Positions 417-51,728 of a stretch of 64,000 nt of DNA are shown one piece after another. Each line of letters opens with the position of its first letter. The stretch's first letter is position 1. Origin of the DNA: an uncultured Candidatus Binatia bacterium (GTDB lineage Bacteria; Desulfobacterota; Binatia; UBA9968; CAXXLF01); NCBI GenBank assembly GCA_965218425.1, contig OZ244621.1:2279369-2343368 (forward strand), in the 5' to 3' direction. The notes beneath the pieces were generated by a model. The model had not been told where the DNA came from and did not search any database. It was given only the letters and a program-made list of their open reading frames with translations. The translations under genes were made by a program, and so were the position numbers.

Positions 417-741
417 ACAAAACAAGACGGGCCGCACGTCTATACTTGACGCGTCGTCAAGCATTTCTATGTTTTATCAATATCTTCCATCTCTTCAAAG
501 GAACTCGTTTTGCAGGAAAACAAGCTAATATGCTGAAAATGCCTTTGAATGCCTTTTTCTTAGCTATACTAATCTACTTGTTCTTCTAATTGTTCTTACT
601 GATTCAATGATCCGGGTAAATCTGCGGTTAAGGCTCTTTACGCCTTTAGTGTCTCGGCGCGAAAAACTTTGTGGACCGGTGTTGTTGAGGATTCCATGGG
701 TTAAGATCCAACAGGTCAGGGGAGCAGTGAATTTTTCCGGT

Positions 742-1785
742 TTATTTCTTGGCAGTGAAGATCAGGGTCTTCGGGTAATGGTCCACCCAACCGAACCAGA
801 AGGAGGGGGTGACAGGTACGGCCTCCAACCTTTGACCTTTCATTTGACCCTGAACGGCCTTTCCCGTTAGCCCATTCCACACGGAGCCGGTTGTGTCGTC
901 GGTAAGAAAGGTGCCTTTGTAGTTTTCCGGCTGCGTCTTCTTGAATGTAAGAACCCGGTCTTTCACCTGGCGTTTAAACACCATCCCCGTCGCGCTGTCC
1001 TTTTCGAAGACCGCAAGAATTGGGATCCCTTGGAATACGTCATTGACCACCGGCTGCTTGCTCAGGACGGAATAGGGGTAAGCCTTCGCTTTTCCATCGA
1101 TCACTAATCCAAGTACGTATTCTTTGGGATAGACCCTCTTATCAGACAAGCGAGTGGGAATAATCCCCGTGTCTGCGGAACTATAGTATGATTCGTAAGG
1201 GTCCCGTCCCAAGCTGAGGGGAAAAGGCCGTCCACTGGTTAAAACCTTGGAGTCCGGGTAGAGTCCCATCCAGGTCCCCCAACGAGTAAACGTGGATTCC
1301 ATGGGTTTGAGCTTGTTCCCGTCCATTGGGCCTTTGACCGCCGCTCCCACCAGGTGGCTCCAGAGGCTGTCCGTTTGGTGGTCGTACATTATCAGAGAAT
1401 TGGCATGGAGTTTCCCTGAGACCCCAAAGGTCAACTCCTTGTCTGCGATTCTACGGTCATACACGATGGCCGTATAACAGAGGGGTCACCAGGTGACCGC
1501 GATGGGTATGCCGCCAACTTTGTCGTTGACGATTTCAACCCGGCTCAGTGTGGCTACGGGGTAGGCGCGACTGTCCCCATTGATTTCCACACCGATGACG
1601 GATTCGTCCGCCTTGAGCCATTGGGCACTTTTGCCGTCCTGGAACTCGGGGGAGAGGATGGCCGCAATGGCATCCTTGGCCAGGACGGTAATAATCTCAT
1701 TCGGACGAAGGTCTGCCGCATGAGAATGATTTGGCAGGAATAGTAAGACCAACAGGATCAGCCATAGGGGAAGACAGTATTTCAA
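742..1785 (-). CDS. DUF3179-family secreted protein with in-frame TGA (candidate selenocysteine, W-U-P-L-C; alternatively a pseudogene)
   Basis: Two adjacent minus-strand ORFs (1486..1908 and 742..1464) are in the SAME frame separated only by TGA at 1483-1485 (...IAVTW-TGA-PLCYTAIVYDRR...). N-terminus has a signal peptide from a TTG start at 1785 (MKYCLPLWLILLVLLFLPNHSHA). An ATG at 1908 is an alternative start. Confidence 0.55.
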
Positions 1786-1798
1786 TGGGCCCTCTTGT

Positions 1799-2644
1799 TT
1801 AGCTCTGGATAGGTTTGGAAGCGGACCGGGCGAGGTGCAGGAGCTCCTGGATGGGTCTCTTGGAAACCAGAAGGCAGATTCGTTCTCCCATGCGGTGCAT
1901 GACCCCATTTATCCCATCGTTGGAGAAAGTATAAAAACTGACCTTTCTCTCCGGATCAAAGAGCCTGCGGGCTTGTGGTGGAGCGTCTTGTTCCGTGCCG
2001 AGAAAGGTAAAACAACTGACAGAAGGACCGGTGCCCTCGTACACGGCAATGAGGATATCGCGATTGCCGACTTCTTTGACCGTGCCGCCGACGGCCTTTA
2101 ATCCCGCGGAGGATAGATCATAACCCATTGGCGCGAATTTGCCCTCCATGGCCTGGTGCAATTGGTTTTTAATTGCTGATGGGCTTTCGGCTCGGACAAA
2201 GGAAAGGTCGCCTGAAGCAATCTGTGCATGCGCCTCTATGGCTGCCAGAGGCATAGGCTGACCGGTCGGCCAGGTCAGGTAAAATAAAGGGACGAGCAGT
2301 AAAATCAGTGCGGCCGATGCAAAGGCGGGGCGGGTGATGAAATTGGGTGTCCGGGAGAACCCTTTACAACCTTGGGTTGGTTCGGTGGCCTGAGGTGAGA
2401 TATGGTGATCCGCGAGGATCTTTGCTCTGAGATCGGAGGGGGCGGACACTTTGGCGCCGATGGAAAAGAGCTGTTTTTTGAGCTCCTTTTCCTGCTCAAA
2501 TACGGTTTGACAGTTCACGCAATTTTTTAGATGGCTCTCTATGGCCTGTCGCTCGAGGTCATTTAGTTCGCTATCCGCTAGAGCGGTTATAAGCTCCTCG
2601 GCCTCTTTACAAGTCATTTCCGTTACTTTCCTTCCTCCATGCAC
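1799..2644 (-). CDS. anti-sigma factor (zinc-finger HxxxCxxC N-terminal domain, one TM segment, periplasmic C-terminal domain)
   Basis: N-terminal ...MTCKEAEELITALADSELNDLERQAIESHLKNCVNCQ (putative zinc-finger anti-sigma motif), central hydrophobic segment. Likely true start at the internal Met near 2617. Confidence 0.6.
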   Translation of the reverse strand: MHGGRKVTEMTCKEAEELITALADSELNDLERQAIESHLKNCVNCQTVFEQEKELKKQLFSIGAKVSAPSDLRAKILADHHISPQATEPTQGCKGFSRTPNFITRPAFASAALILLLVPLFYLTWPTGQPMPLAAIEAHAQIASGDLSFVRAESPSAIKNQLHQAMEGKFAPMGYDLSSAGLKAVGGTVKEVGNRDILIAVYEGTGPSVSCFTFLGTEQDAPPQARRLFDPERKVSFYTFSNDGINGVMHRMGERICLLVSKRPIQELLHLARSASKPIQS

Positions 2645-2834
2645 AATAGCTATAACCTATACAACGTCGTTCCTACCCCAGGAGTTCCCGAAATATTACC
2701 CCTTTACGGCGGCAAATCGATATCATAGCTCTTGGATGATCCGGGTGATTGTGGTAAGGGGTCTCTTCGTTCCGTGTCTTGTCCTAGAAAATATTCTGCA
2801 CGGAGTCTTGCACGATGACAAGGGGAGAAAGTTT

Positions 2835-4205
2835 ATGACCACGAAATACGATGCCATCGTTATCGGTACAGGCCAGTCGGGCCCTTCCCTGGCCGCGCGG
2901 ATGGCGGGTGAAGGAATGAAAGTTGCCATCATTGAACGCAAGTCGTTTGGTGGCACCTGCGTTAATACCGGTTGAATACCCACCAAGACCCTGGTGGCCA
3001 GTGCCCATGCCGCTCACATTGCAAGGCGTGGGGCTGAATACGGGGTGATGATCGGCGGGCCGGTCACCGTGGATATGAAAAAGGTCAAGGAGCGTAAGGA
3101 CAAGGCGGTGCAGCGGTCCAATCAGGGAGTGGGCAATTGGGTCAAGAACCTGAAGAACGCTAAGGTTTACGAAGACCACGGGCGGTTCGAGGGACCCCAC
3201 GCGGTGCGTGTGGGAGGGGAGCTCATAGAGGCGGATAAGATTTTCATCAATGTCGGCGCGCGCGCGTCGGTAATGGACCTCCCTGGGGTAAATTACTTCA
3301 CCAATTCGAGCATCATGGAGGTGGATTTTCTCCCAAAGCACCTGATCGTGGTCGGCGGAAGCTACATCGGCCTGGAGTTTGGTCAGATGTACAGACGCTT
3401 CGGCAGCGAAGTGACCATCGTGGACCGTGGGCCTCGGTTGACCCAGCAGGATGATGAGGACACTTCCCTGGCGATCAAGGAGATTTTGGAAGCGGAGGGG
3501 GTGAACGTTCGGCTCGAAGCTGAATGTATTTCTGCTGCGCAAAAGGGCGATCAGATCACCGTCAATTTGGACTGCAAAACCGGAGGTAAGGAGGTAACGG
3601 GTACCCACCTGCTGCTCGCCATCGGACGGCGTCCCAACACGGACGACCTGGGCATAGATAAAGCAGGCCTCGAAGTGGATCGGCGGGGGTACATCAAGGT
3701 GGACGATCGGCTTCAGACCAACGTGCCTGGAGTTTGGGCCATTGGGGACTGCAATGGCAAGGGAGCCTTCACCCACACCTCGTATAACGACTATGAAATT
3801 GTTGCGGCCAATCTGTTCGACGACGACCCACGCCGGGTCAGCGACCGAATTTTAACCTATGGGATGTTTATCGATCCGCCCCTCGGACGCGCGGGAATGA
3901 TCGAAGATGCAGTGAAAAAATCAGGCCGCAAAGCGTTGATAGCAAAGAGGCCCATGACTCGTGTGGCGCGCGCCGTGGAGAAAGGCGAGACACAGGGATT
4001 TATGAAGATCTTGGTGGATGCCGAAACCAAAGAGATCCTCGGGGCCGCCGTCCTTGGTGTTGGTGGCGATGAAATCATTCATTCCATCCTGGATGTGATG
4101 TACGCCAAGGCGCCCTGCACGGTTATTCAGCGGGCTGTCCACGCCCACCCAACGGTGTCGGAGCTGATACCCACCATGCTGGGGGACCTGAAGCCGCTGG
4201 AGTGA
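2835..4205 (+). CDS. FAD/NAD(P)-dependent pyridine nucleotide-disulfide oxidoreductase (mercuric reductase / RclA-like class I) with selenocysteine at the redox-active site (GGTCVNTG-U-IPTK)
   Basis: ATG 2835 preceded by AGGGGAG RBS. GxGxxG FAD motif (VIGTGQSG). In-frame TGA at 2973-2975 sits exactly where the second Cys of the conserved CVNxGCIPSK disulfide motif is expected, and the frame continues uninterrupted to 4205 with a second Rossmann motif and the C-terminal HAHPTxSE dimerisation signature. A 7-bp hairpin lies at 2979-2998, just 3' of the TGA. Confidence 0.8.
2979..2998 (+). promoter_or_regulatory. hairpin immediately 3' of the Sec-TGA of the oxidoreductase (candidate bacterial SECIS core)
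   Basis: CCCACCA-AGACCC-TGGTGGG-like 7-bp stem / 6-nt loop at 2979-2998. Confidence 0.4.
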
Positions 4206-4359
4206 TGTGTCCTTCGCTTGGGCAAATGAGCATCAGGGCAAGCCCATCAATTATGAACGGCTAATCTGGACCCTTCCGCGGCTGGTACAGTGCTTGTACG
4301 TGTTTCGACCAGTTCGCAAGATGGATGATGCATGCCCCGGGCTGAGACCCGGGAAGTCT

Positions 4360-4950
4360 TCATTCTCGCTTTTTCCCGCCTTGTTTAACCTCTTCCACCA
4401 TGTAGCATCGTAGGTATTGGTGAAGGTATTTTCTACCCCGGGAAAGTCTGGAGCGAATGGTTCCCAAGGGGCATGAGAGCACCTCCGAGGCCTCTGCATA
4501 TGAAAGCTCTCCCATGTCCACCAGTACAATGGGCGCTCTAAATTCTTCAGGGATTTTGGTCAGGGCCTCATTGACCTTGACGCTCAATTCTTTAGTGTAG
4601 ACATTGTCTTCCGGCCCTGGCTCCGGTCCCGGAAGCGTCTCCCAATAATCTAAGCCCTCTTCGTCCCAGAGACCCCGTCCTTCCACGGCCGCCCATCTTC
4701 TCTTCCTGTGGTGGTGATCGAGAAAAAAGTTATAGAGGATCCGACTCAGCCACGCCTTCAGGTTGGTTCCAGGGGTGAACTGTTCGAATGAATCAAGGGC
4801 ACGTAGATAGGCTTCTTGGACAAGGTCTTGAGCTTCCTGAGGGTCCCTCGATAGGTGTAGGGCAACTCGATAAAGGTGATCGAGGTGTTGCAGCGCCTCT
4901 TGGGCGAAGCGCTCTCTCCCGGCTTTGGTGTTTTTGCCCCTCCGTATCAC
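4360..4950 (-). CDS. ECF (RpoE-like) sigma-70 family sigma factor
   Basis: 196 aa; region 2 (YLRALDSFEQF...AWLSRILYNFFLDHHHRKRR) and region 4 HTH (ELSYAEASEVLSCPLGTIRSRLSRGR). Confidence 0.85.
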   Translation of the reverse strand: MIRRGKNTKAGRERFAQEALQHLDHLYRVALHLSRDPQEAQDLVQEAYLRALDSFEQFTPGTNLKAWLSRILYNFFLDHHHRKRRWAAVEGRGLWDEEGLDYWETLPGPEPGPEDNVYTKELSVKVNEALTKIPEEFRAPIVLVDMGELSYAEASEVLSCPLGTIRSRLSRGRKYLHQYLRCYMVEEVKQGGKKRE

Positions 4951-5310
4951 GCGGCCATTCTAGCTGAGGGGATGGCCCGTGTCTACTTACTTAAATAGTG
5001 GTTCAGGTTTCGAGTCCACCACACCCGTGGGCCGATTCCCTCTGGGGAAGAGTTCCCACGGGCTCTACGACGTGGTGGGAAACACCTTTAGAGTGGACCT
5101 CCACGCCCGGAGAATAGTTTTGAAGGGATGTTCCTGGGATGATTTACCCGGCGCCTGTGGGGCGGCGCAAAAAACCGGAGGCGGCGGGAAGTGGGTTTAT
5201 CCGGGTTGAAGTGGGTTGATGCGGGCTGACGGAACGAAGATGTTGATTTTGACTTGCCGCGAGATTGCTGATATTACCGAAATCAATCTGGTCGTATCGA
5301 AGAGGCGTCT

Positions 5311-6273
5311 ATGCAGAGCTTCGCTGAGAAAATAAGACAAAGCGGCGACAGCTTCCTCAAGCGCAAGGTGGAAACCCTGCAGGTTAACATGGGGAAGTAC
5401 TGCAACCAGGCATGCCTGCACTGTCACGTGGAGGCGGGACCCACCCGGAAGGAAATCATGACTCTGGAAACGGTAGAGTCGGTGCTCCGTTTCCTCGAGA
5501 AGTCCGATGTGCCCACAGTGGACATCACGGGGGGCGCGCCGGAGCTCAACCCGCATTTCGACTACCTCGTGGAGCGCAGCGTCCAGCTTGGCCGCCACGT
5601 GATGGACCGATGCAATCTCACCGTCATCTTTGAACAGGGGAAGGAGTATCTCCCGGACTTCTTTCAAAAAAACCGGGTGGAGCTGATCTGCTCTCTTCCC
5701 TGCTACACAGAGGGGAACGTAGACCAACAGAGGGGCAAAGGGACCTTCAATCTGAGTATCCGGGCGCTGCGGCTTCTGAACGGCCTGGGATATGGAGTCG
5801 AAGGCACGGGTCTGGAGCTGCAATTGGTCTATAACCCGGTGGGGGCTTACCTTCCGTCGCCCCAGGAACGATTGGAACAGGACTATAAGACTATCCTCAA
5901 GGAAGAATACGGCATCGTTTTTAACCATCTCTACTGTCTTACCAATGTGCCCATCACTCGATTTGAGACCTTTCTGAAGGTGCGAAACGAGTATGACCGG
6001 TATATGGAGCTGATCCAGTCCGCGTTCAACCCGGATACCGTGGACAAGGTCATGTGCAGAAACATCTTGAGCGTAGGATGGGAGGGGTCCGTTTACGACT
6101 GTGACTTCAATCAGATGCTGGAGCTGCCGGTCTCGAACCGACAGGGTAAGCCGCTAAAGATCCAGGACCTCCATGCCGATGGCCTGGAAAATCAATCAAT
6201 CGTGGTCGGAAATCACTGCTACGCCTGTACGGCGGGAGCCGGGAGTAGCTGCGGCGGTTCATTAATAGCGTAA
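5311..6273 (+). CDS. arsS: arsenosugar-biosynthesis radical SAM (seleno)protein ArsS family, Cys form
   Basis: CNQACLHCHVEAGP radical-SAM cluster motif, DITGGAPELNP, CDFNQMLEL, and the family-specific C-terminal HCYACTAGAGSSCGG tail. No in-frame TGA here. Confidence 0.8.
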   Translation: MQSFAEKIRQSGDSFLKRKVETLQVNMGKYCNQACLHCHVEAGPTRKEIMTLETVESVLRFLEKSDVPTVDITGGAPELNPHFDYLVERSVQLGRHVMDRCNLTVIFEQGKEYLPDFFQKNRVELICSLPCYTEGNVDQQRGKGTFNLSIRALRLLNGLGYGVEGTGLELQLVYNPVGAYLPSPQERLEQDYKTILKEEYGIVFNHLYCLTNVPITRFETFLKVRNEYDRYMELIQSAFNPDTVDKVMCRNILSVGWEGSVYDCDFNQMLELPVSNRQGKPLKIQDLHADGLENQSIVVGNHCYACTAGAGSSCGGSLIA

Positions 6274-6275
6274 CC

Positions 6276-6345
6276 GCCGCTTTGCGCTGATGGTAAAACG
6301 CAAAGCGCATGGCGCTATACGCAAAGCGTCTTTTCAGTGACGGGT
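6276..6345 (+). terminator. hairpin-rich putative terminator / repeat element downstream of arsS
   Basis: CCGCTTTGCGC...GCGCAAAGCG inverted repeats (two nested stem-loops) followed by TCTTTTC. Confidence 0.4.
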
Positions 6346-6652
6346 TACGAGTACCGAGTGGAAATTGAGGGTGGGTCAAGGGTGTAGTGAAGTCCGCACT
6401 GTCAACCCTCCACTCCCTAACCTGACCCTTAAACACTTTCCACCGGCTACACCGTTTTCTGCTTACTGCGATCTTCATACGGTTTTCTTTGGCGTCTTGG
6501 CGCGAAAAACTCTTTTGAATTCGTTCTTTTAAAGAATTGATGGGTAGAATTCTAACGGCAAGGCGGGGCCGTGCAGGTCAGGCAGTGAGATTGAGGCGCC
6601 TAGACCCGGCCCCCCACAGGACCCGCAATTCGTTTGGGTTTTGCTCAGCTAG

Positions 6653-6847
6653 ATGGTAAATTACCCCATGGCTGATACATTCCTAAAGCGCAAGAAGGAG
6701 CAGGATCGGCAGAAAAAAAAGAGGGAAAAAGAGGCCATGCGACAGGACCGTAAAGCGGAAAAAGCGAATCGTAGGCCCCTGACTCCAGGCGAAGACCCTG
6801 ACATCGCGGGGATCAAGCCCGGCCCTCAACCGCCGATCGACTGGTAA
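6653..6847 (+). CDS. small highly basic hypothetical protein (64 aa, Lys/Arg/Glu-rich)
   Basis: ORF only; composition resembles small nucleic-acid-binding proteins; no recognisable family. Confidence 0.25.
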   Translation: MVNYPMADTFLKRKKEQDRQKKKREKEAMRQDRKAEKANRRPLTPGEDPDIAGIKPGPQPPIDW

Positions 6848-7012
6848 TCCGCCCCTTCACGAGCAACCTGACGTCCTTCCGCATTCACCCCTTGGACCAG
6901 AGGCCAAGTGCCGTCCTCTTTCAGCCTTATGAAAGACTTTTGCATGTCTCCGAACCCGGCGTTCTTTACCGCTCTCTGCCGGCAATCGTTGATCCGAATC
7001 GCTAAACGCGAA

Positions 7013-8317
7013 TCAGGCGCTATCCTCTGCTTTACTCTGCTTCCGATCCGACTCCAGTGACGCCAGCGCCTCCTTTACCAGCTTGCGCCGTAATTCTTTC
7101 TCTTCCTCGCCCGTCAGGTTTGCCGCGCCGGTGACGTGGACTATGCCGTTGCCCAAAACGACGCGGTTGGAACCGACCATCTTTGCAATGGGCATGGCCG
7201 AGGTAATCTGGACCACCGGGATGCCCGCCTTTTCCAGCTCGGTTGATATCGCAGCTCCGCTGCGAGTGCTCGTTCCTCAGGTGGAGGTGAGGATGACGGC
7301 GTCGACCTCCTCCCGCTTCACTTTTTCGGCCATCTCCCTGCCCAGGCGCCGCGTGTTCGAGAGCGGGTTCGATAGACCAGATGTGGAGATGAACTCGTGG
7401 TGGAGTTTTCCGATCCTGCCGCTTCTTTCCATCTCGCGCATGGCGTCGAGGGGCACGAGACGGTCCGGATCCTGTTGAACGAATCTCGGATCATAGCCGC
7501 CGTGAGAGATCTCGTAGTCCTCCCCCCTGAGATCATCCCGGCCGTCGATGCTATAGGAGCCCCACCGGGTGGCGGCTTGTCCTTCGATTTTGTCCGGGTT
7601 GCCCTTCGGAACGAGGCCGCCGTCGGTGATGAGCATGACCTTGGCCTTCGAAAGATCCCCCACGGCGGAGGGCATGGGAACCGGTTTAAAGGAAGTCGGC
7701 AACATCTCAGACTCGAAGGGCTCTCCTTTCACTTTCGTCAGGAGCATATCAACGAGCCGGACGGCGGCCGTCCGATCCGCCAGTTGATCGCGCAGGATAC
7801 CCCGGGAAAGGTAGCCTTCCTCTGCGGGCAGCCCGATGGACTTACCGTGGACGAGCTTTCCTCCCAGACGCGCCATTTTGGTTAGGACTTGCCGCATCTT
7901 GGCGGGGCTCGCACCCGAATTCACGATATAGAGCGCTTCCCGGTTGAGATCCGCCCCCGGGTTCTCGCTGCCCATCCCGGTAACGACGGGAATCCCCAGG
8001 TTGGACTGAACGGCGGCGCAGAGGGACCCCGCCGCCATCCCATATCGACCCGCTTCGAAGCAAGGACCGGCAACGAACAGCTCTGCACCCGCCTCCCGGA
8101 CCTTTGCCAGCACCGCGGCCGTCAACTCCTCCTGGTGTTCCACGGCATGGTTGTCTCCGGAAATGAGGGTCATAACCACACGTGAGCCATCGCCCAGCAG
8201 TTGTTCCAACAGCCTCCCCGGTCCTACGGCCCCCTCACGCGCCTCAAGGGGCATGCCCGCCTGCTCCTCTCCCCCGACTCCGCCGAAAAACTGATTCAAA
8301 TAGTGTACGATTCGCAT
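7013..8317 (-). CDS. grdB: glycine/sarcosine/betaine reductase component B selenoprotein (GrdB family) with in-frame Sec codon
   Basis: N-terminus MRIVHYLNQFFGGVGGEE...GPCFEAGRYG...GIPVVTGM matches GrdB. ORF 7277..8317 ends in TGA (7277-7279) in context EEVDAVILTST-U-GTSTRSGA, and the 67-aa ORF 7013..7216 is its in-frame continuation (...IPVVQITSAMPIA...EEEKELRRKLVKEAL). Confidence 0.85.
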
Positions 8318-8350
8318 TTTTTGACCCTCCTCACCGGATTCGCGACTGGA

Positions 8351-9631
8351 TCAAGTGACCAAAGCCCGCATTCTCGAGGCTCCCTGTTGATTGGTGACGC
8401 CGGCAACGTTCGCAGCGGCGACCTTCGTCGGTCCGGCCAACACCCTCCTCAACTCCGGGGTCGCGGCGATGATCCGATCCACCGGTGCCAACGTGTAATT
8501 CGTTCCGTTTCCGCCGTTGTATACGATGGCATTCACCTCCGGAAAGTTGAAGAGCAGAGCCGACTCGACCCGCCTGTCCCTTGCCATGTCCGAGACCATG
8601 ACAGTGGTTTTTATGCCCATACCTTCCAGGAGCCGAGCGGTCTCCGCCAAGTCGGCATGGGGAACACCGCCGCCGTACTTGGTTAGAATGACGGCGTCCG
8701 CTTTCAACGCCCACCTGACCAGATTCGCAGCCGTCCGACAGTTTCGGTCGCGGTCGAAGTTGTCGGAACCGGCAACGGTCGCCACCGTGCCCACGAAGTT
8801 GAGATGCCGCGCATGGTGGCGACCGTAGAGCTCCAGGATCACGGGGTGATTTTGATAGAAGTAGGTTTCCGCGCCGCCGATGGAAGAATGGTACGATGGG
8901 ACGACGGCGCCGTCCAGCCACTCGTCGGGATGAAGCGGGATGGGCAGCATCCCTTCCGTGTTGGCGCCATAGAGAATGGGCTCGTCCACGCCGGGCTTTC
9001 GCTGGCGCGAGAAGATCTGGCCTACATATGCGACCCGGGGAAGCCCCTCGCGTCCCGCCTCCGCGGGACCCGCCGGGTCGAATTGACGGGTGGATGCCGC
9101 AGGCTGACTCGCCGCAATGCGGGCCATATGAACCGAGAGCCTGAGACCGGCCCGACGATACGCTTTTCCGATGCTTTGAGCGGGCAACTCCGAACGCGTA
9201 CGGGGAATCGCCACCAGGTGGTGCAACGAGGAGTAATTGCTGCCTTCAGCGGCTGCCCCGCTCATCTCCAATACCCGGCCCGTCACGCCCCTGGACTCTC
9301 CCGGAGACCTCTCCGCCAGAACGGTGACGACGGCTCCTTCGAGCACATGGGTCGTCCCCATGCCCGCCGTTTCCGGCGCACCCAGGATGCCCGGGAAATC
9401 AGGGCTTGAGCCCTCTCCTTTAGCTCTGGGCTCGATGATGTCGAAGACGGGCGCGGCCCGACAACTCTCGCCGGGGCGCACGATTTGGAAATCCACGCCG
9501 GTAAGGGCATCGTCTTCAAGAACCAACCGGCGCAGTTCCTCCGGATCGACGACGAGGACCGAGCCGTCGAGACGGGCCGGTGTTTCCAAGCGGATCTCCG
9601 TGATGGGGTGACATGCCAGGGTCAAACGCAT
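8351..9631 (-). CDS. grdE: glycine reductase component B alpha/beta proprotein (GrdE family)
   Basis: MRLTLACHPITEIRLE...IVRPGESCRAAPVFDIIEPR... matches GrdE N-terminus; ~425 aa; internal N-C pair (DRDRNCR) as possible pyruvoyl-forming self-cleavage site. Confidence 0.75.
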   Translation of the reverse strand: MRLTLACHPITEIRLETPARLDGSVLVVDPEELRRLVLEDDALTGVDFQIVRPGESCRAAPVFDIIEPRAKGEGSSPDFPGILGAPETAGMGTTHVLEGAVVTVLAERSPGESRGVTGRVLEMSGAAAEGSNYSSLHHLVAIPRTRSELPAQSIGKAYRRAGLRLSVHMARIAASQPAASTRQFDPAGPAEAGREGLPRVAYVGQIFSRQRKPGVDEPILYGANTEGMLPIPLHPDEWLDGAVVPSYHSSIGGAETYFYQNHPVILELYGRHHARHLNFVGTVATVAGSDNFDRDRNCRTAANLVRWALKADAVILTKYGGGVPHADLAETARLLEGMGIKTTVMVSDMARDRRVESALLFNFPEVNAIVYNGGNGTNYTLAPVDRIIAATPELRRVLAGPTKVAAANVAGVTNQQGASRMRALVT

Positions 9632-9751
9632 TTTTCTTTCCTCTCGTGAAGACCCGGCAAGGGACCGGGAGTCCTCCAGGAGCGAGCGCAATCTCAGACC
9701 GGCTACTGCTCTGCTTATACCTCAAAGCAAGCTTGCCGCCAAGGGTTCAGC

Positions 9752-10219
9752 TTATCCGTCGGCGAGCCCGGAGCGAACCTCCCGCATCGCCGTGGCGATA
9801 GCCTCGGTTTCCACTGCCATCTCGATCAGGCCCACCTCGTCGGCGTAGGTCTCGGGGTCCACCTGCTCCTTGATCTCGGGCTCGGTGATGTGGAAGACGG
9901 GGAGTTTCAAGCCGACGCCGCCGAGCGCTCCCGCCCAGGTCGGATCCCCATCGGTCATGGTCAGGCCGAACAGTTTGCTGCTCTCTGCGGTGGGAGTTCC
10001 GAGAAGGACAACGACACCGGCAGTCCCCGTGGCGTCTACCTTCCGTTTGATTTCTTCTTGACCTTCCAGGTCAAGCGCGCCCGACGCCGTTCAGACGAAA
10101 CAGTGGGTGAGTTCAAGGATGACTTCGGCGCCCGCGCTTTTCGCGCAAAGAGCGATGGAGTTGCCTTGAACGCCGTCTCTTTCTCCCAGAACAATGACTT
10201 TCTTCCCGTTCAGCTTCAT
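9752..10219 (-). CDS. grdA: glycine reductase selenoprotein A (GrdA) with in-frame Sec codon
   Basis: ATG at 10219 with GGGGG RBS. Translation MKLNGKKVIVLGERDGVQGNSIALCAKSAGAEVILELTHCFV-U-TASGALDLEGQEE... closely matches GrdA (…TECFVUTAAGAMDLE…). TGA at 10091-10093; 155 codons. Confidence 0.9.
10057..10075 (-). promoter_or_regulatory. hairpin 3' of the grdA Sec-TGA (candidate SECIS)
   Basis: CUUGACC-UGGAA-GGUCAAG perfect 7-bp stem, 16 nt downstream of UGA on the mRNA. Confidence 0.5.
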
Positions 10220-10335
10220 AACGCCCCCGTCATTCATATCGAGCCGAGACTACGACCTCGCCAAGCCGGAACATCTAGCAGAGGACAGTAGGCGGCAAGA
10301 AATCAACCTCTTGACCTTACTTTTCTTAAATTTAG

Positions 10336-10394
10336 CTTTGACCGCCGCATACCGCTTACTGCGAACTGCTTACTGGTTTCGCTTTGCGCGAGTC
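10336..10394 (+). repeat. 58-bp GC-rich intergenic repeat, copy A (between grdC and grdA)
   Basis: GCCGCATACCGCTTACTGCGAACTGCTTACTGGTTTCGCTTTGCGCGAGTCATC; ~93% identical to the reverse complement of 62384-62445. Confidence 0.8.
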
Positions 10395-10402
10395 ATCCCC
10401 GG

Positions 10403-11854
10403 TTAGTTTTTCGGGTTACGCTCCAATACAAAGGATAATCCGTCCGCCATCTGAGTCATGCGGCCTAAAAACAGGCTCCCTTTGGCCAAGAACATGGCTC
10501 GATCCATAGCCCCCGACACGATACGGTCCACTGCGTGCCCCAGGAAAGGGATCGCCGAGGCGATATGGCCCTGAGTCGGGGCATAACCGGGCATTCCGTG
10601 TGTTTCCGCAAAACTTGAAATCTCGTTAGGGGCGATCTCTTTGTTCCGCGCCGCCAGGGCGGCGATAAGCCTGTAGTTCGTCAACGGAACGTTGCCGTTT
10701 CCGGACGGTTCCGTCACCTCCGGGTTGTGCAGCTCGGTGGCGTACTTGTCGATATCCCCGAAGCGCAATTTTAGTTTCTGCAGCGGCTCGGCCACCAGTG
10801 AGCCGAAGACGGCCTGCTGGCTCGAGCCGGCACCCACCCGGTGCATACCGACGGAATCCAGCCTTAGCCAAGGATGTTTCCCGTCGTCCCCGGAGACGTG
10901 GATGGCAACTCCCGCCAAAACATCCTCCAAGACCGGTTGTTCGTGTTTGAGATGGCCTTGAAACTTCATCCCGAGTTTCGCCAGAGAGCCGCCCCCGACG
11001 ACCACCACATTGCGGAACACACCCGCGCTCACGAGGCTGCCGGCCAGCAGCAAAGCATGGTTCGGACCCGAGCAAAAGCCTTTGACGTCGACCCCGCTCG
11101 CCATGGAGCACCCGCACATTTCCCCGATGGCCTTCGCCAGGTTTCCTCCGCCGCGCTGGTAACGGTCGCCCACCGCCTCCTCGCCGCTGTTTAGAACATA
11201 ATCAATGGCAGCGGCCTGTGCGCCTTCACCCTTCAGGAGCGTCTTCAGGGCCACTACCGCCGTCGCCTTGCAGGCCAGGTTCTCGAGGAGAATGTCGGGC
11301 GCAAGGGAGCGGTCCTCCCGATCGCCCGGCAGGACGCAGCCCACCAATTGCCCGTCCCGCAGATTGAGGGGGAGCGCGGGCGACGGACCGTCGATCCGAG
11401 CCTCGATGGCGGAGAGCGGCTTGCCGTCGTTGAGGTTCGCGGCTTCCACCTTCCCGAAGAGCGGATGGAGTTCCAACGCCCGCCGCGCCGTCCCGAGAAA
11501 ACCTTCCTCGAGCCAAAGCAGCCCGAAGAGATCGCAGAGCTTCATGACGGCGTAAAACTCCTCTTCCGGCATGAATTCACCATGCCGTTGCCGCCGTTCC
11601 GTATCCTGTCTCACGGCAAACCAGGGCCGTTGGAGGGATTTCAGTTCATCGGGGTAGATGGATCCTAGAAATACCCGGTTCGGCGGATAGGACAAAGCGT
11701 CCTCGAAGGAACGGAGCCGCTCCCGAATTCGTTCGCTTACCGCCGCTTCCCGGACGATTTCACGCGCCGGTTTCGAGCCGTGGGTGACAAGTCCGGGCGT
11801 ATGAGATAAAAAGTAGCGAACGGCCTTGATGACTGGTTGATTTCCCGGGGGCAT
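10403..11854 (-). CDS. grdC: glycine reductase complex component C-like protein (GrdC-like, beta-ketoacyl-synthase-like fold)
   Basis: 483 aa; size and context (immediately upstream of grdA-grdE-grdB) fit GrdC. Assignment GrdC versus GrdD is from size only. Confidence 0.5.
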   Translation of the reverse strand: MPPGNQPVIKAVRYFLSHTPGLVTHGSKPAREIVREAAVSERIRERLRSFEDALSYPPNRVFLGSIYPDELKSLQRPWFAVRQDTERRQRHGEFMPEEEFYAVMKLCDLFGLLWLEEGFLGTARRALELHPLFGKVEAANLNDGKPLSAIEARIDGPSPALPLNLRDGQLVGCVLPGDREDRSLAPDILLENLACKATAVVALKTLLKGEGAQAAAIDYVLNSGEEAVGDRYQRGGGNLAKAIGEMCGCSMASGVDVKGFCSGPNHALLLAGSLVSAGVFRNVVVVGGGSLAKLGMKFQGHLKHEQPVLEDVLAGVAIHVSGDDGKHPWLRLDSVGMHRVGAGSSQQAVFGSLVAEPLQKLKLRFGDIDKYATELHNPEVTEPSGNGNVPLTNYRLIAALAARNKEIAPNEISSFAETHGMPGYAPTQGHIASAIPFLGHAVDRIVSGAMDRAMFLAKGSLFLGRMTQMADGLSFVLERNPKN

Positions 11855-11979: not shown

Positions 11980-13479
11980 ATGATCCGTCTCTCAACGATT
12001 CCCAATCGGGCGCACCTGATCAACTGGTTTGAATGGGGGGAAGAGGCGTTCCGCGCGGCTCGAGGCCACAATAAGCCCTTGATGCTTTTTTTGCACGCCT
12101 TTTGGTGCCGTATCTGCCAGCGAATGGACGAGGACGCCTTCTCTAACGACGAGAATATCACGTTGCTGAACGCCTACTTCGTCTCGGTCCGGGCGGAGAA
12201 CGCGAAGCGGCCCGACGTGGACGTTCGCTACAATCAAAACGGGTGGCCCACGATTGTTTTCATGACCCCGGAGGGGGAACAGCTCGCCTGCGCGAACAGC
12301 CTTGACGCGGAGGCGCTCGGAAGCCTTTTGGTTCGGGTCTATGAGGCTAATCGGAAGATTCGAAACGAAGTTCGCGGGAAAAAGGGAACACTCGCACGGG
12401 CCCCACGCGAGGCCGCGAGTCGGCCGGACCCCATCGACCATCGGGACTCTGGCGTTTCGGAGATTACCCAGCTGATCATGGGGCTCGCCGACCGCGTTCA
12501 CGGCGGCTACGGGCATGGTCGGAAATATATCCATTCGGATGCGAACGATTTTTTGCTCTCCCGTTATGGAGCGGCAAAGAATTCCGACTATCTCGATCAC
12601 GTGTGTTTAACTCTCGACCGGATGCGGGAGAGTCCGATCCACGATCGTGAAGAGGGCGGGTACTACCGCACTGCCTCCGGTGAGGACTGGAGCGGCCCCC
12701 ACCGGGAAAAGCTTCTGGCGGATCAGGCGGGCATCCTTAACAACTGCCTGGGGGTTTTCGAGATCACTAAAAACCCAACCTATGCGCGTATGGGTGAAGG
12801 CATTATCGACTACCTGAATAACAGGCTTTTGGATTCTTGCAGCGGAACCTATTTCGGTTGCGAGGATTTTATTCGAAGCGAAGACAAGGATGCTTCTTCC
12901 CGGGCAGGGTATTTCTCCATCCTGGACGACTGTATTTACACGGACGCGAACGCCGACGCCATCGGCGCTTACCTCAGAGCCTATGCCGTGTTGGGCAAGT
13001 CGGCCTGCAAGGAGATTGCGTTAAAGGCGCTGGAATTCATCTGGGACAAATGCCGGAGTCCCCGAGGGGGAGTCTATCATTACTTCGACGGCGCGCCTCA
13101 CGGGCCGGGATTGCTCGATGATCAAGCGCGCCTGGGCGCGGTGTTGGTGCATGCATGGAAAGCCACCGGCGAAACTCGGTATCTGGACCGCGCGAAGGAT
13201 TTGGCCGAATTCATTCTGGCGAGACTGAGAAACCCGGCCGGCGGCTACTACGATCTTTCGGCGCCGGGAGCCGCATACCTCCGCTACCCGCTGACTCTGA
13301 TCGAACGGAACGGAGCCGCTGCGGCGTTTTTTTTCGCCCTCGCCGAGTCCAGAGGCGAGGCCAAATACCGGGACGCAGGGGTTTGGGCCATCGGCGCGTT
13401 CACGGGAGATTTCGGTCGGTACGGAATTCACGCGGCGGGGTTCGGTCGAGCGCTCGCTGAATTCGTGCGGCGTCCTTAG
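11980..13479 (+). CDS. DUF255 / YyaL-family thioredoxin-domain protein (thioredoxin-like N-domain plus alpha/alpha-toroid domain)
   Basis: N-terminal NWFEWGEEAFRAARGHNKPLMLFLHAFWCRICQRM (DUF255 thioredoxin-like with CxxC), long helical C-terminal domain. Confidence 0.7.
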   Translation: MIRLSTIPNRAHLINWFEWGEEAFRAARGHNKPLMLFLHAFWCRICQRMDEDAFSNDENITLLNAYFVSVRAENAKRPDVDVRYNQNGWPTIVFMTPEGEQLACANSLDAEALGSLLVRVYEANRKIRNEVRGKKGTLARAPREAASRPDPIDHRDSGVSEITQLIMGLADRVHGGYGHGRKYIHSDANDFLLSRYGAAKNSDYLDHVCLTLDRMRESPIHDREEGGYYRTASGEDWSGPHREKLLADQAGILNNCLGVFEITKNPTYARMGEGIIDYLNNRLLDSCSGTYFGCEDFIRSEDKDASSRAGYFSILDDCIYTDANADAIGAYLRAYAVLGKSACKEIALKALEFIWDKCRSPRGGVYHYFDGAPHGPGLLDDQARLGAVLVHAWKATGETRYLDRAKDLAEFILARLRNPAGGYYDLSAPGAAYLRYPLTLIERNGAAAAFFFALAESRGEAKYRDAGVWAIGAFTGDFGRYGIHAAGFGRALAEFVRRP

Positions 13480-28743: not shown

Positions 28744-30804
28744 TTATCTCCTGTTACTCTCGGCAGGACGGTTAGACGTTTCGGCTGCCATAATCTTCTG
28801 TAGCAACCCCTCGGTTTCCTTCTCCACTGCCAGAATATCCGCCCGGATCTCTTCCAGCGTGCGCAGCGGCTGCGGCTTGTAGAAGTAGCGGGTGAAGCTG
28901 ATCTCGTAGCCGGTCTTGACGCTCGCCGGGTCGTACCAGGCGTCAGGGGCATAGGGCAGCACCTCGCGGCGAAGGAATGCTTCAATTCCGCCTTCCTCCA
29001 ACAGCGGCGCCTGCTCGGTGTCCCGCAGGTCGGTGTCCGGCTCGTACTCGACGACAGCCGGCTTGCCTTTGACGGTCGCCTCGAACAGGCCGCGCAGGGG
29101 GTCGGGCTCGACGCCCTTCCTGTGGATCTTCTTGATGACGGGCGGCGCGCTCTCGTCCCTCTCGGCGGTCTCCTTGAGCGCCTTGATCTCCTTCGGCGCG
29201 TAGACGCGGTCGGGGTCTATCCCCGTGAGCCGGAGGGGCCGCTCGACCGTCACCTTCCGATACCCGAAGGCGGCGTTCGGGAAGATCTTCGACTGCTCGG
29301 TCTCCTCGAAGGCCAGGAACGTGTCGCAGATGCGCTGGATGTCCTCGTCGGACAGCTCGCAGTTCTTCTTGCCGAGGTTCTTCCGGAGCGGCTTGTACCA
29401 GGGCGCGGCGTCGATGAGCTGGACCTTGCCTTGGCGATGGGCGGGTTTCCGGTTGGTCAGCACCCAGATGTAGGTGGCGATGCCGGTGTTGTAGAACATG
29501 TTGAGCGGCAGCGCGACGATCGCCTCCAGCCAGTCGTTTTCGATGATTCAGCGGCGGATGTTGCTCTCCCCCTGACCGGCGTCTCCGGTAAAGAGCGACG
29601 AGCCGTTGTGGACCTCGGCGATGCGGCTTCCCAGAGGGGCGCCGTGCTTCATCTTCGAGAGCATGTTCGCCAGGAACAGCATCTGACCGTCGCTGGAGCG
29701 GGTGATGAGCGAGTACTCGGCATCGCCGCCGTGTTCGATCAGAAAGCGCCGGTCCTTGATACCCTCCTTGCCGCCCAGGCGCTCCAGGTCGCTCTTCCAG
29801 CTCTTGCCGTAGGGCGGGTTGGAGAGCATGAAGTCGAACTCGCGGGACGGAAAGGCGTCGTTGGAGAGCGTCGAGTGTTCCGGCCCCCCGATGATGTTGT
29901 CGGCGGCTTCCCCCTCGCCCTTGAGGAGGAGGTCAGCCTTGGCGATGGCGTAGGTCTCGGCGTTGATCTCCTGGCCGTAGAGATGGGTGGCCGCCTGCTT
30001 GCCGCGCTGCCCGGCAATCTGCGTCAACGCCTCCTCGGCCACCGTCAACATGCCTCCGGTGCCGCAGGCGCCGTCGTATACCAGGTAGGTCCCGGAGTCG
30101 ATCCGGTCGGCGACAGGCAGGAGGACCAGCTTCGCCATGAGCTGCACGGCATCGCGGGGGGTCCAGTGCTCGCCGGCCTCCTCGTTGTTCTCCTCGTTGA
30201 AGCGGCGGACCAGCTCCTCGAAGACCGTGCCCATCGCGTGGTTATCGAGGCCGGGGTGTTTGATCGACCCGTCGCCGTGGAGGACCGGGTGCGGACTCAG
30301 GTTCACGTCCGGCGAAAGGAACTTCTCGATCAGCGTGCCGAGGGCGTCGGCCTTGGACAGGCGGGGGATCTGGTTCCGAAACTCGAACTTCTCCAGGATG
30401 TCCTGCACGTTCGGCGAGAAGCCGTCGAGATACGCCTCGAAGTCGGCCTTGAGCTGCTGTTGGCCGGCGCGGGCCTTGAGGTCGGGCAGCGTGAACTTCG
30501 ATGTGTTGTGGAACGCCTGGCCGGCGGCCTGACGCAGTGCCTGGTCCTGGTGGATGATCTTCGCCTGGTCGAGCGAGGCCTTCATCTCCAGCACGGCCGG
30601 CTTGCTCGGCTCCAGGAGGGAGTCGAGCCGCCGCAGCACGGTCATGGGCAAGATCACATCCCGATACTTGCCGCGGACGTAGAGGTCTCGCAGCACGTCA
30701 TCCGCGATGCCCCAGATGAAGTTGGCGATCCAGCCGAGTTGAGATTGGTCCACGGGAATCCTGGAAAGGCTCTGCCGGGATGTCCTTTTCGGCCGCCCCG
30801 GCAC
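28744..30804 (-). pseudogene. hsdM: type I R-M N6-adenine DNA methyltransferase HsdM with in-frame TGA at a conserved Trp position
   Basis: ORF 29548..30804 contains the HsdM N-domain and catalytic NPPYG, and stops at TGA (29548-29550) in ...FTGDAGQGESNIRR-TGA-IIENDWLEAIVALP... The frame then continues into ORF 28744..29499 (MFYNTGIATYIWVLTNRK...). Confidence 0.75.
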
Positions 30805-31386
30805 GTATTATTTAAGGTAACCGATCCACGGCCGCGATACAATGTATTGTATTGGGCCGCCACATCTTGCACTCTTCGGGTCTTCGCGTGCTCAATGAGA
30901 TGAGCCAACCCCCCGGGTGCAATGTCTTCGCAATAAGCTTCCCTGAAGGCTGTGGTCGGGACAATCGCTGACTTGTTCAGCGCCTCGATACCGTAGCAGC
31001 GTCCCCTCCGGTCACTACCGCTTTTTTGGTGTAGTTCGATCAATCGAAATGAACGAAACACGTTATCTACTGCACAAGACGTGACCCAGTGTTGCGCTCG
31101 GCGACGTCGTAGGCTCAGAATGAGGCGCCGCCCACCCCGATTTAACGGCCCTGAAAGGGCCGTTTTTCGACCCCTAAATGCCCCGGAAAATCCGGCCGGT
31201 TTCCGGCCCATTTCCAATTATTTCCGTCCGCCTACGCTCAATCGGTCAATCCCCCGGCGTGCTCTTCTACGTTTCATGATGCGATAGTAGGCGCCAGGGC
31301 ACTCGATCCGCAGTGGACGTGACATGCGTGGGACTCACTACGGCCAAGTTATCGCTATTCGTCCACCGATTATCACCCGGTCTCAC

Positions 31387-34412: not shown

Positions 34413-35975
34413 CTATTTATCCAGCCAGAGGTAATTGAGCCCGCCGCCATGGTAGCGGAAGTGACCCCCACTATCCGTATTGAAGCCCTTGACGTAGTCC
34501 CGGAACATAAAAAAGCGGGGTGTAAAGCCGATGGGTATATCCGGTATGTCTTCGGTCACTTTGGCGACAATTTTTTGAAAGAGTTCCTTCCGCTTCTCGG
34601 GATCGGACTCGACCTCGGCCTGTTTAATGAATGAGTCCATCTCCTTGTCGCAGTAACCGGCTGAATTTGCGGCCCGTTTCTTCAGATCGTGTTCGCATAT
34701 GAACTCAGGCCCATACGTAGGGTAAGGATCGGGATCGAATGAACCCCCGGAAAACCTCAAGGCGAAATCGCCTGAGCGTTGGCTTGCGACATAGGCACTG
34801 TAGTCCATGACCTGAAGGACGACCTTCAAGCCGATCTTTTTAAGCTGGGCCTGAAGCGTTGCCCCTTCGGTTTCCATGTCTTCGCCCTGCCGCCCCGTGA
34901 TCGCGATCGGCTCTCCCTTATAGCCGGATTCCTTCAGGAGGGCTTTGGCCTTTTTGAGATCCAGCTTCGGCGTAGGTATCCCCTTGAAATGCCAGACATG
35001 CCCCTTGGGATATAGTTGGTTGGTAGTTTCTCCAAACCCAAAATAGGCTGCCTCTAGAATTTCCTTTTTGTTGATGGCATGGGCTACGGCCTGGCGCAGC
35101 TTCTTGTTGTTGAAGGGCGCGCCTGCGACGTTAAAGTTGAGGTGGCGATAACCGGCATGAGGGGCTTGCACATGGCGGATCCCTTTGATCTTGCCATTGA
35201 GGACCTGCTTCACCCACTCGTAGGGAGCCCGCTCGATGATGTCCACGTCTCCCGCGCGCAATGCCGTGAAGCGCACGGTGGAATTCCGGATGGGCCTGAT
35301 TACGAGCTTGTCGATGAAGGCCTTGTGCCCCCAATAGCCGTCATAGCGTTCGAGGACGATTCGCTGCCTGGCCCGCCACTCAACGAACTTGAACGGCCCG
35401 GTCCCCGGGGGAAACGAGCTGGGCTTGGAAATACCCGCTTGCACGGATTCTTTGGGGATGACGGAAAAGGCGCGGATGTCCGAAAGCAGCGAAAGAAACG
35501 CCGGGCTGGCTTTTTTCAGGGAAATCTTCAGCGTATGTTTATCTACGGCTTCCGCCCGCTCAACCAGGGTGAGCCGGACAAAACCGTAGGCTCCATTCTT
35601 GGGATTCTTCGTGTAGTCGATGGCGAACTTCGCGTCTTCTGCCGTCACCTCCCGGCCGTTGTGGAATTTGACTCCTTTGCGCAGCCGGAACGTATATTGC
35701 CTGCCGTCCTTGGAGATCTCCCACGACTCGGCGAGGTTCGGGCGAATTTTTCCCTCTAGATCAATGGTCAAGAGCGACTCGAACATGAGGTCACGGAGGG
35801 ATTTATCGGTGGATGAAGTTCTGACCAGAGGGTTCATCATGGTCAGATCCTTACGGGTTGAAAAGGTTAAAGTGCCGCCCCGCTTGGGTTGGCCTTGCGC
35901 GTTACCGGCCGGCGCCGCAAGGGCCAATAAGAAGGATGATAAAACTAGGCCTGCAATAATATTCCATTGCTTCAT
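34413..35975 (-). CDS. ABC transporter substrate-binding protein, family 5 (peptide/nickel type)
   Basis: 520 aa, signal peptide, SBP_bac_5-like sequence throughout. Confidence 0.8.
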   Translation of the reverse strand: MKQWNIIAGLVLSSFLLALAAPAGNAQGQPKRGGTLTFSTRKDLTMMNPLVRTSSTDKSLRDLMFESLLTIDLEGKIRPNLAESWEISKDGRQYTFRLRKGVKFHNGREVTAEDAKFAIDYTKNPKNGAYGFVRLTLVERAEAVDKHTLKISLKKASPAFLSLLSDIRAFSVIPKESVQAGISKPSSFPPGTGPFKFVEWRARQRIVLERYDGYWGHKAFIDKLVIRPIRNSTVRFTALRAGDVDIIERAPYEWVKQVLNGKIKGIRHVQAPHAGYRHLNFNVAGAPFNNKKLRQAVAHAINKKEILEAAYFGFGETTNQLYPKGHVWHFKGIPTPKLDLKKAKALLKESGYKGEPIAITGRQGEDMETEGATLQAQLKKIGLKVVLQVMDYSAYVASQRSGDFALRFSGGSFDPDPYPTYGPEFICEHDLKKRAANSAGYCDKEMDSFIKQAEVESDPEKRKELFQKIVAKVTEDIPDIPIGFTPRFFMFRDYVKGFNTDSGGHFRYHGGGLNYLWLDK

Positions 35976-36014
35976 GGTAAAGCCCTCCTTTTGAAGCGAT
36001 TGATTACCATTAGG

Positions 36015-36245
36015 TCATGGCCATGTCAATATCTCGCCCGCCGGCCGGTCTTGCCGTCGGGGAGATGGATCGCGGCGTCGAACCGGGCGGCGGCATCGGC
36101 GTGGTCGATTTCGTCGATCGGCCTCCTGCCGAAGGCGGGGAGGATGCGGGCCTTGAGATAGATGCGCGCGGTCTTGCGCCCGGAGGGTTTCCAATTGGGG
36201 TCGGGGCGGCGCAGATATTGCTCGGCGAACGCCTTGAAAGATTGA
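36015..36245 (-). pseudogene. remnant of a P4-type tyrosine integrase (N-terminal SAM-like domain fragment only)
   Basis: Minus-strand frame without start codon: ...RPWLFQSFKAFAEQYLRRPDPNWKPSGRKTARIYLKARILPAFGRRPIDEIDHADAAARFDAA... matches the integrase N-terminal domain; catalytic domain absent. Confidence 0.5.
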
Positions 36246-36320
36246 AACAGCCAAGGTCTTGTTGTACCGATCTTTCAGTTCCTGTAGCGTCGGCCTTAAC
36301 GGGCCGGTGAGGATTGAAAT

Positions 36321-50307: not shown

Positions 50308-50735
50308 AGGGAGGAGCGCAAGCCTCAGCCTCCCCCTTGTGAAGGCGGCCATGACGCCGACGTTATGCCGCCTTCCGCCGCCCCCCTCGGATGACACGGG
50401 AGTGAGGGAGTTGGAATGAGGCAAGAAACGTGGCGATCTATATCGGAGGACTGCAAAGGGCTATGATACAGTTCCGTCAGTGGAATCATCTTATGGGGTA
50501 GAAAGTAAGATGGCGGGATCTGGAAAGCCACGGAAACGGATTGAAGAGATCGAGAGACATATTCTCAGCCGGCAAGCGTAGGCTTGACCCCTTGCCTTCT
50601 AACACCCGACCATGCGGGTTTCAATGTCATGGAAGCAAGGCATTCACTTGCGCCCGGCGCCGGTGTTCGTTACCGTAGTCGGGTGGAGCGGGATTCAGAC
50701 TTCGCCGTCCTTCGCGCGGCAATTCGGATGTCACA

Positions 50736-51596: not shown

Positions 51597-51728
51597 TGGA
51601 GCCGGCTGGTCCGTTATCGGTTGGGACTATCCGATCTCGTCTTCGGCGCGGCGAAGCAGTAAAGATCAAGCCGTTTGTGTCAAAGGGATAAACGCAGCCG
51701 CAGATAATAACAACCAAGGAGGTTCGAA

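Follow-up and report, generated by a model that had tools for sequence, protein, structure and literature searches.

Can four genes, each interrupted by one in-frame TGA, all encode selenoproteins, and which RNA structures would instruct the ribosome to read through? This question is raised by a 64,000-nt stretch (the window) from an uncultured Candidatus Binatia bacterium, contig OZ244621.1, positions 2,279,369 to 2,343,368. The window has a G+C content of 57%. There is one in-frame TGA apiece in grdA, grdB, a gene for a class-I flavin adenine dinucleotide (FAD) disulfide oxidoreductase, and a gene for a DUF3179 protein, and the family-model matches span both sides of each. A first-pass annotation had reported a candidate selenocysteine insertion sequence (SECIS) hairpin after each TGA. 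It had taken the hairpins of the two uncertain genes, the oxidoreductase and DUF3179, as the main argument for read-through rather than decay. We consider it probable that the four TGAs are the selenocysteine (Sec) codons of GrdA, a GrdB-family protein B, the DUF3179 protein (W-U-P-L-C), and the oxidoreductase (C-V-N-T-G-U). As part of the same reading, the hairpins of grdA, grdB, and DUF3179 are the signals, and the signal of the oxidoreductase is more likely at 2988-3066. Positions given as nt count the U of the UGA as nt 1; all other coordinates are those of the window (Table 1).

All four in-frame TGAs very probably encode Sec, as judged from comparative sequence data. This reading follows from the conserved alignment of TGA with Cys and from the intact downstream frames, not from the hairpins. 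Independent lineages have the TGA at the identical codon, and the frames that follow it are open over their full length. Three points can identify a selenoprotein gene: a TGA aligned with Cys, a TGA in other lineages, and homology past the TGA. All three were found for the oxidoreductase, DUF3179, and grdB. For grdA, the TGA is conserved and homology continues past it, and the assignment is based on those two points. The TGAs are present in independent assemblies, so an assembly error is unlikely. Among the ordinary stops of the window, TGA is the most frequent, and the oxidoreductase gene itself ends in one. The genetic code is therefore not reassigned, and this explanation was excluded.

The oxidoreductase matches NF004992 (PRK06370-type) over residues 1-455 at 775.3 bits, above the cut-off of 629, and is thus a member of this family. 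It carries Pyr_redox_2 and Pyr_redox_dim domains and the active-site signature GGTCVNxGC. The TGA falls on the second Cys in CVNxGC, the CxxxxC redox pair. Among 80 genomic relatives (65-76% identity), Cys occupies the TGA position in 78, one (L053) is not resolved, and one (L004), a Syntrophobacteraceae metagenome-assembled genome, has a TGA followed by a full open frame. The same-codon TGA is also present in L203, L204, and L214. A metagenome scan for GGTCxNxG-TGA-xPTK found at least 120 contigs (L081-L200) from soil and wetland. On those contigs that hold the whole frame, 410-425 codons are open after the TGA in most cases. Database relatives with at least 86% identity are all shortened calls, and those with 78% or less are full-length Cys proteins. 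The TGA is thus shared by close relatives, with Cys beyond them and full frames after the TGA, which argues that it is fixed in a clade and encodes Sec rather than marking decay.

The other genes show similar marks of a missed Sec codon, and gene callers split or shorten the selenoprotein genes. The PF11376 match of the DUF3179 protein runs across the TGA at 283 bits. The TGA aligns with the first Cys of WCPLC, as seen in the Cys homologue P0001. Among the 120 best DUF3179 database relatives listed, 118 are incomplete: their calls start downstream of the TGA and measure 202-245 aa. P0002 (215 aa), which matches the window exactly, is likewise shortened, and the sole full-length call among the 120 is P0001. 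The UxxC/T type of DUF3179 is already a listed selenoprotein family (PMC13188914) and was first reported from Olavius symbiont metagenomes. GrdA is matched by PF04723 (173.7 bits) and NF040748 (177.6 bits; cut-off 130), and its translation is uninterrupted except for the single in-frame stop. For the N-terminal part of grdB, nearly all of the best 120 database relatives are gene calls of exactly 346 aa that end at the TGA.

The oxidoreductase and DUF3179 TGAs could instead be inactivating nonsense mutations in decaying pseudogenes, with hairpins that arose by chance. Both genes are split by gene callers, their hairpins are no better than chance, and the window does contain one real nonsense-type TGA, in the methylase gene hsdM. 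We consider this explanation extremely improbable. Lineages with as little as 64-75% aa identity still have the TGA, followed by intact full-length frames; its positions are exactly those of redox-active Cys residues, and the synonymous sites next to it are constrained. In addition, DUF3179 UxxC is a recognised selenoprotein family (PMC13188914). In solved homologues of HsdM, on the other hand, the residue aligned with the TGA is T or Q rather than Cys, and the best model hairpin there reaches only -4.5 kcal/mol. A nonsense mutation or an assembly error is the probable origin of this TGA, which can be used as a negative control within the window. Thus, the first-pass annotation was right to prefer read-through to decay for all four genes, on comparative evidence, and its count of four in-frame TGAs was incomplete, since this fifth one splits HsdM. 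Two other TGA-separated pairs of open reading frames (ORFs), at 34413-36521 and 50603-51691, were rejected as unrelated ORFs or junk frames.

The hairpins were examined against the bacterial SECIS (bSECIS) consensus that PMC13188914 summarises from Zhang and Gladyshev. It consists of a loop of 3-9 nt, a stem of 4-16 bp, a G within the first two loop positions, a UGA-to-loop distance of 16-37 nt, and an energy no weaker than -7.5 kcal/mol. Not all published bacterial SECIS elements conform to this model (PMC13188914). RNA folding recovered all four reported hairpins at roughly the places given. The DUF3179 stem-loop UACGG...CGUGU...CCGUA is present, and the grdB hairpin CGCAGC-GGA-GCUGCG, placed near 7245-7265, was located at 7249-7265. 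The grdA stem-loop is also present and begins 15 nt after the UGA, not 16. The oxidoreductase stem given as 7 bp at 2979-2998 exists with 6 bp at 2980-2997.

The chance level of such hairpins is high. The best model-compliant hairpin was scored at 3000 random in-frame positions in the window's long ORFs, of which 19% had one at or below -7.5 kcal/mol, 27% at or below -6.5, and 6-7% at or below -10.5. A second null used 400 synonymous-codon permutations per gene, with the protein and the codon usage preserved, and gave p values of 0.07 for grdA, 0.07 for grdB, 0.14 for DUF3179, and 0.48 for the oxidoreductase. Equally good chance hairpins, which the first-pass annotation had itself named as evidence that would count against it, were thus found for the oxidoreductase and DUF3179 by both approaches. 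The presence of hairpins at these two genes, no better than at random positions or in codon-permuted genes, does not serve as the main argument for read-through. A scan of the window for a TGA with a hairpin and an open frame returned 13 spurious sites besides grdA and grdB. No Rfam family was matched in the whole window at gathering thresholds or at 600-10400 with E up to 1, and so there was no match to a bacterial SECIS. A hairpin after a TGA in G+C-rich DNA is almost uninformative alone.

More can be learned from shared motifs and from synonymous sites. grdA and grdB have a motif in common, a GGN triloop closed by 6 bp or more. In 128 kb there are 31 copies of it, which gives P of about 0.005 for each site at the permitted spacings. 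Two matches in four sites are therefore not chance. The motif was found in neither the oxidoreductase nor the DUF3179 gene. The organism's own SECIS consensus from grdA and grdB combines a stem of 7-8 bp with a GGN triloop that lies 18-23 nt from the UGA. In grdA, the hairpin CUUGACC(U)-GGA-(A)GGUCAAG can be drawn with 8 bp and a GGA triloop or with 7 bp and a UGGAA loop. Its spacing is 23 nt, and it agrees with the bSECIS model in all five features. Two relatives have grdA, L210 and L211, and both retain the stem while synonymous sites upstream vary, and an E-to-D change in one of them touches the loop only.

The grdB hairpin has 7 bp, the loop GGA, and a spacing of 18 nt, and it too agrees with the model in all five features. 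It was compared in the DNA of four orthologues (76-91% identity) and one paralogue, a set with a background codon identity of 18.9%. The stem codons CGC, AGC, GCU, and GCG are identical throughout. In the loop codon GGN, the last base is variable (A, C, or U), and the flanking synonymous sites vary freely. An invariant stem with a free third loop base is what one would expect if the stem is functional and the loop tolerates change at that position. A second grdB paralogue (UxxCxxS) is present in L213 at 8948-10009 on the minus strand, and it has the same CGCAGC-GGU-GCUGCG hairpin after its TGA.

The DUF3179 hairpin has 8 bp with one mismatch and the loop CGUGU, with G second. Its spacing is 20 nt, and its energy of -6.5 kcal/mol misses the -7.5 cut-off. 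Six Sec orthologues (64-85% aa identity) were compared. Of 160 amino-acid-invariant degenerate codons, 20 (12.5%) are identical in all six. Eight of these 20 follow one another without a gap, from codon +4 to codon +11 (nt 13-36), exactly over the hairpin, and a seventh orthologue agrees. The chance of such a run is 0.125^8, about 6e-8 per position. Thus, this weak hairpin appears to be under strong constraint at the RNA level. The DUF3179 element is thermodynamically weak and sequence-invariant. Synonymous-site constraint in orthologues supports the hairpins of grdA, grdB, and DUF3179 as putative SECIS elements, and this much of the role first proposed for the four hairpins can be retained.

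The oxidoreductase hairpin at nt 8-25 has fared differently. It is possible to keep it as the SECIS element and to read all four genes as selenoproteins, as was originally proposed. It is stable, one G-C to G-U double change in L004 keeps it, and the consensus does not cover every bacterial SECIS element that has been published (PMC13188914). We nonetheless regard this proposal as very unlikely. The hairpin begins only 4 nt after the UGA and its loop lies 10 nt away, under the model minimum of 16. The ribosome footprint would place the 5' arm, nt 8-13, inside the mRNA channel while the UGA is decoded. In the 78 Cys homologues, at least 5 of the 6 pairs are kept in 73% and all 6 in 23%, several with identical sequence, because the hairpin is encoded by P-T-K-T-L-V. 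In the TGA-bearing orthologue L214, only 4 of the 6 pairs are left, and the hairpin is not conserved across the other Sec subgroups. It was rejected as a coding by-product. An alternative hairpin at nt 21-42 (-6.2 kcal/mol, with a GU-first loop) has the position of another subgroup's conserved hairpin. Its pairs are equally common in Cys homologues, and it was also rejected.

A better candidate was found further downstream. The Sec sub-subgroup compared consists of the window, L203, L204, L214, L190, L004, and L181. Within it, 13 of 28 codons downstream of the UGA are synonymously identical, versus 1 of 27 upstream. Every member folds the same extended stem-loop, nt 16-74, followed by a perfect hairpin, nt 77-94. 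In each of the seven Sec relatives, 6-7 of the 7 pairs of the core helix 32-38/54-60 are present, and among the 78 Cys homologues 7 of 7 pairs are found in 1% and at least 6 in 5%. The base helix 16-21/69-74 is conserved. The core-helix pairs 33-59 and 35-57 are altered on both sides. The helix 77-83/88-94 has 7 of 7 pairs and invariant synonymous sites in all seven Sec relatives, and it is fully paired in 1% of the Cys homologues. The extended stem-loop departs from the bSECIS model. Its loop, UCACAUU, has no G at either of its first two positions and lies 38 nt from the UGA, so the structure is non-canonical. We tentatively put forward the Sec-clade structure at 2988-3066 as the best candidate for the oxidoreductase SECIS, at slightly less than even confidence.

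The element bound by SelB could also be the nt 77-94 hairpin by itself. The nt 16-74 hairpin would then be only a folded spacer that brings nt 77-94 within about 21 unpaired-equivalent nt of the UGA. The perfect pairing of this second hairpin with its invariant synonymous sites, the G at loop positions 2 and 3 as the consensus requires, and the conserved base helix of the nt 16-74 structure are all in accordance with such a design. A split-design bacterial SECIS was not found in the literature searched. The peptide M-I-G-G-P-I-T is clade-specific, and shared ancestry could explain the identity; there is no covariation to consult, because nothing varies. We consider this arrangement unlikely, and the composite structure at 2988-3066 is preferred.

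Different subgroups of the Sec-oxidoreductase appear to use different structures. RNAalifold gave no consensus structure for all 15 Sec sequences of the window's subgroup, because its sub-subgroups bear different elements. One sub-subgroup has a canonical GGCGCU-GGUCGCG-AGCGCC hairpin at nt 15-33, which the window is without. The other subgroups have their own conserved hairpins, mostly canonical, for example UCUAUCC-GGC-GGAUAGA at nt 23-39. The pooled synonymous-conservation profile of Sec versus Cys oxidoreductases showed no common peak. At least three subfamilies can be distinguished among the metagenome contigs, and each has a conserved hairpin of its own.

Several observations weigh against the overall reading of four selenoproteins with these signals. 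By random positions and by codon permutation, folding energy alone gives significance to none of the four hairpins. The 64-kb window contains no selA, selB, selD, or tRNA-Sec gene, with the tRNA scan and Rfam included, so the Sec machinery is assumed. The Cys-type DUF3179 gene L206 (P0001), the single Cys homologue with DNA compared, keeps 23 of the 24 hairpin nt. Part of the DUF3179 conservation may therefore be independent of Sec, or the Cys form may be recent. Covariation in the oxidoreductase structure is not significant, as the observed score was reached in 81 of 500 shuffles (six sequences, about three lineages). The core helix of L214 contains an A-C mismatch, and the folding energies of Sec and Cys oxidoreductase genes over the region are alike.

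Table 1. Coordinates of the genes, putative Sec codons, and RNA structures in the window.
Feature	Window position	Strand	Position from UGA	Details
DUF3179 protein coding sequence (CDS)	about 742-1785	minus		
DUF3179 putative Sec codon	1486-1488	minus		W-U-P-L-C
DUF3179 hairpin UACGG.CAU-CGUGU-AUG.CCGUA	1452-1474	minus	nt 15-37	-6.5 kcal/mol
zf-HC2 anti-sigma factor gene	1799-2644	minus		
Class-I FAD disulfide oxidoreductase CDS	2835-4205	plus		opposite to the sigma, anti-sigma, and DUF3179 genes; ends in an ordinary TGA stop
Oxidoreductase putative Sec codon	2973-2975	plus		C-V-N-T-G-U
First-reported oxidoreductase hairpin CCACCA-AGACCC-UGGUGG	2980-2997	plus	nt 8-25	6 bp, -8.8 kcal/mol
Sec-clade extended stem-loop	2988-3046	plus	nt 16-74	base helix 16-21/69-74, apical loop nt 42-48
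Core helix of extended stem-loop	3004-3010/3026-3032	plus	nt 32-38/54-60	
Second Sec-clade hairpin UGAUCGG-CGGG-CCGGUCA	3049-3066	plus	nt 77-94	perfect 7 bp
Extracytoplasmic function (ECF) sigma factor gene	4360-4950	minus		
grd operon (grdC-like, grdA, grdE-like, grdB in order)	7013-11854	minus		family-model matches
GrdB-family protein B putative Sec codon	7277-7279	minus		S-T-U-G-T-S-T-R-S; CDS 7013-8317
grdB putative SECIS hairpin (U)CGCAGC-GGA-GCUGCG(A)	7249-7265	minus	nt 15-31	-10.7 kcal/mol
grdA putative Sec codon (UGA)	10091-10093	minus		C-F-V-U; CDS 9752-10237
grdA putative SECIS hairpin CUUGACCU-GGA-AGGUCAAG	10057-10075	minus	nt 19-37	-10.5 kcal/mol
HsdM methylase (HsdM_N + N6_Mtase, type I restriction-modification)	28744-30807	minus		split by TGA 29550-29548; ORFs 418 + 251 aa

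On the established bacterial pathway, a ribosome would reach the UGA, and a stem-loop within the coding sequence that begins 11-15 nt further 3' would be bound by SelB with guanosine triphosphate and Sec-tRNA(Sec). This complex would then out-compete release factor 2. The paradigm is fdhF of Escherichia coli, which likewise has a coding-sequence stem-loop just 3' of an in-frame UGA. The minimal SECIS element of E. coli lies 11 nt after the UGA, and the structures in the window, which start at nt 15-19, are similar. When set beside known bacterial elements, grdA and grdB fit fully (7-8 bp, a 3-nt loop starting with GG, 18-23 nt, -10.5 kcal/mol or better). DUF3179 fits in geometry and in the loop rule and differs in energy. 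No fitting element was found for the oxidoreductase, since the reported one is too near and the clade-specific loop is too far and without a leading G.

Neither the SECIS elements of grdA and grdB nor the selenoprotein DUF3179 is of a new kind. As in glycine, sarcosine, and betaine reductases, Sec falls on the family's CxxU position in GrdA, and in GrdB it falls on the U position. Protein B does differ, having U-G-T-S-T-R-S (UxxSxxS) instead of the UxxCxxC described for GrdB (PMC13188914). It passes the TIGR01918 subfamily model at 455.5 bits and is below every NCBIfam equivalog cut-off (GrdB, GrdF, GrdH), with 421 bits against a cut-off of 602 for TIGR01917 (GrdB). On both score and motif, it falls outside TIGR01917. 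The GrdE-like partner (8351-9691, minus strand) scores 172 bits against a cut-off of 780. From their sequences, protein B and this partner are a putative divergent Grd-type reductase. Hundreds of close relatives are found in metagenomes under inconsistent names, glycine or betaine reductase. The DUF3179 protein (PF11376) has the same domain and the same U-P-L-C as the known family, a Cys counterpart reads WCPLC, and nothing essential differs. What is added here is the invariance of 24 nt over the hairpin across seven orthologues.

The oxidoreductase is apparently an uncatalogued Sec-flavoprotein family and is the most interesting by-product of the analysis. It matches the class-I pyridine-nucleotide disulfide oxidoreductases over its full length (PRK06370-type; relatives include MerA, RclA, lipoamide dehydrogenase, and glutathione reductase), with the difference that Sec takes the place of the second Cys in the redox pair. 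In glutathione reductase, this second Cys is the flavin-proximal, charge-transfer thiol. Mammalian thioredoxin reductase has its Sec in a C-terminal GCUG tail instead. A CxxxxU class-I flavoprotein is absent from the May-2026 inventory of 119 prokaryotic selenoprotein families, which lists the Sec-flavoproteins CoA-disulfide reductase (UGxP) and type III sulfide:quinone reductase (HxxU), not of the CxxxxU type (PMC13188914). No CxxxxU flavoprotein was found in the BSepDB, deep-Sep, GOS, Olavius, and Chaudhuri-Yeates papers or in full-text searches, a description elsewhere in the literature being possible. The evidence leaves us evenly divided on the full proposal that this is an uncatalogued, widespread selenoprotein family (GGTCxNxG-U-xPTK) whose subgroups have different SECIS elements, with a non-canonical two-hairpin element of about 80 nt here.

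The neighbouring genes give some indication of function. The cluster 742-4950, which holds the genes for the ECF sigma factor, the Sec-oxidoreductase, the zf-HC2 anti-sigma factor, and the Sec-DUF3179 protein, is syntenic in L203, L204, and L214, and partly in L207 and L208. The sigma and anti-sigma factors that adjoin the two selenoproteins suggest a selenium-dependent stress regulon. Genes for grd and DUF3179 were sought in 200 oxidoreductase loci, and none was found. AhpC/TSA peroxiredoxin genes that adjoin DUF3179 are called as short fragments in L208 (9044-9274, 76 aa) and L209 (7827-8417, 79 + 95 aa). These fragmented calls bear the signature of another unannotated Sec codon. A 499-aa DsbH/thioredoxin-like protein (11980-13479, plus strand) is divergent from the adjoining grd operon and is also a neighbour in L210, L211, and L212. 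It may be a thiol-redox partner of the grd operon. ArsS, a radical S-adenosylmethionine protein (TIGR04167, 5311-6273, plus strand), belongs to a family that is often a selenoprotein. It has the Cys form here (...GSSCGGSLIA) with the stop TAA and was ruled out as a further selenoprotein of the window.

For annotation, the four genes that pipelines split or shorten should each be joined as a single selenoprotein gene. For method, comparison with Cys homologues together with synonymous-site conservation separates real SECIS elements from coding by-products. For the biology of the family, these genes point to a flavoprotein disulfide reductase with Sec in its flavin-adjacent redox pair, which is outside the 119-family inventory yet present on at least 120 contigs. 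The position of the Sec-oxidoreductase and DUF3179 genes beside an ECF sigma/anti-sigma pair makes the idea of a selenium-dependent stress regulon testable.

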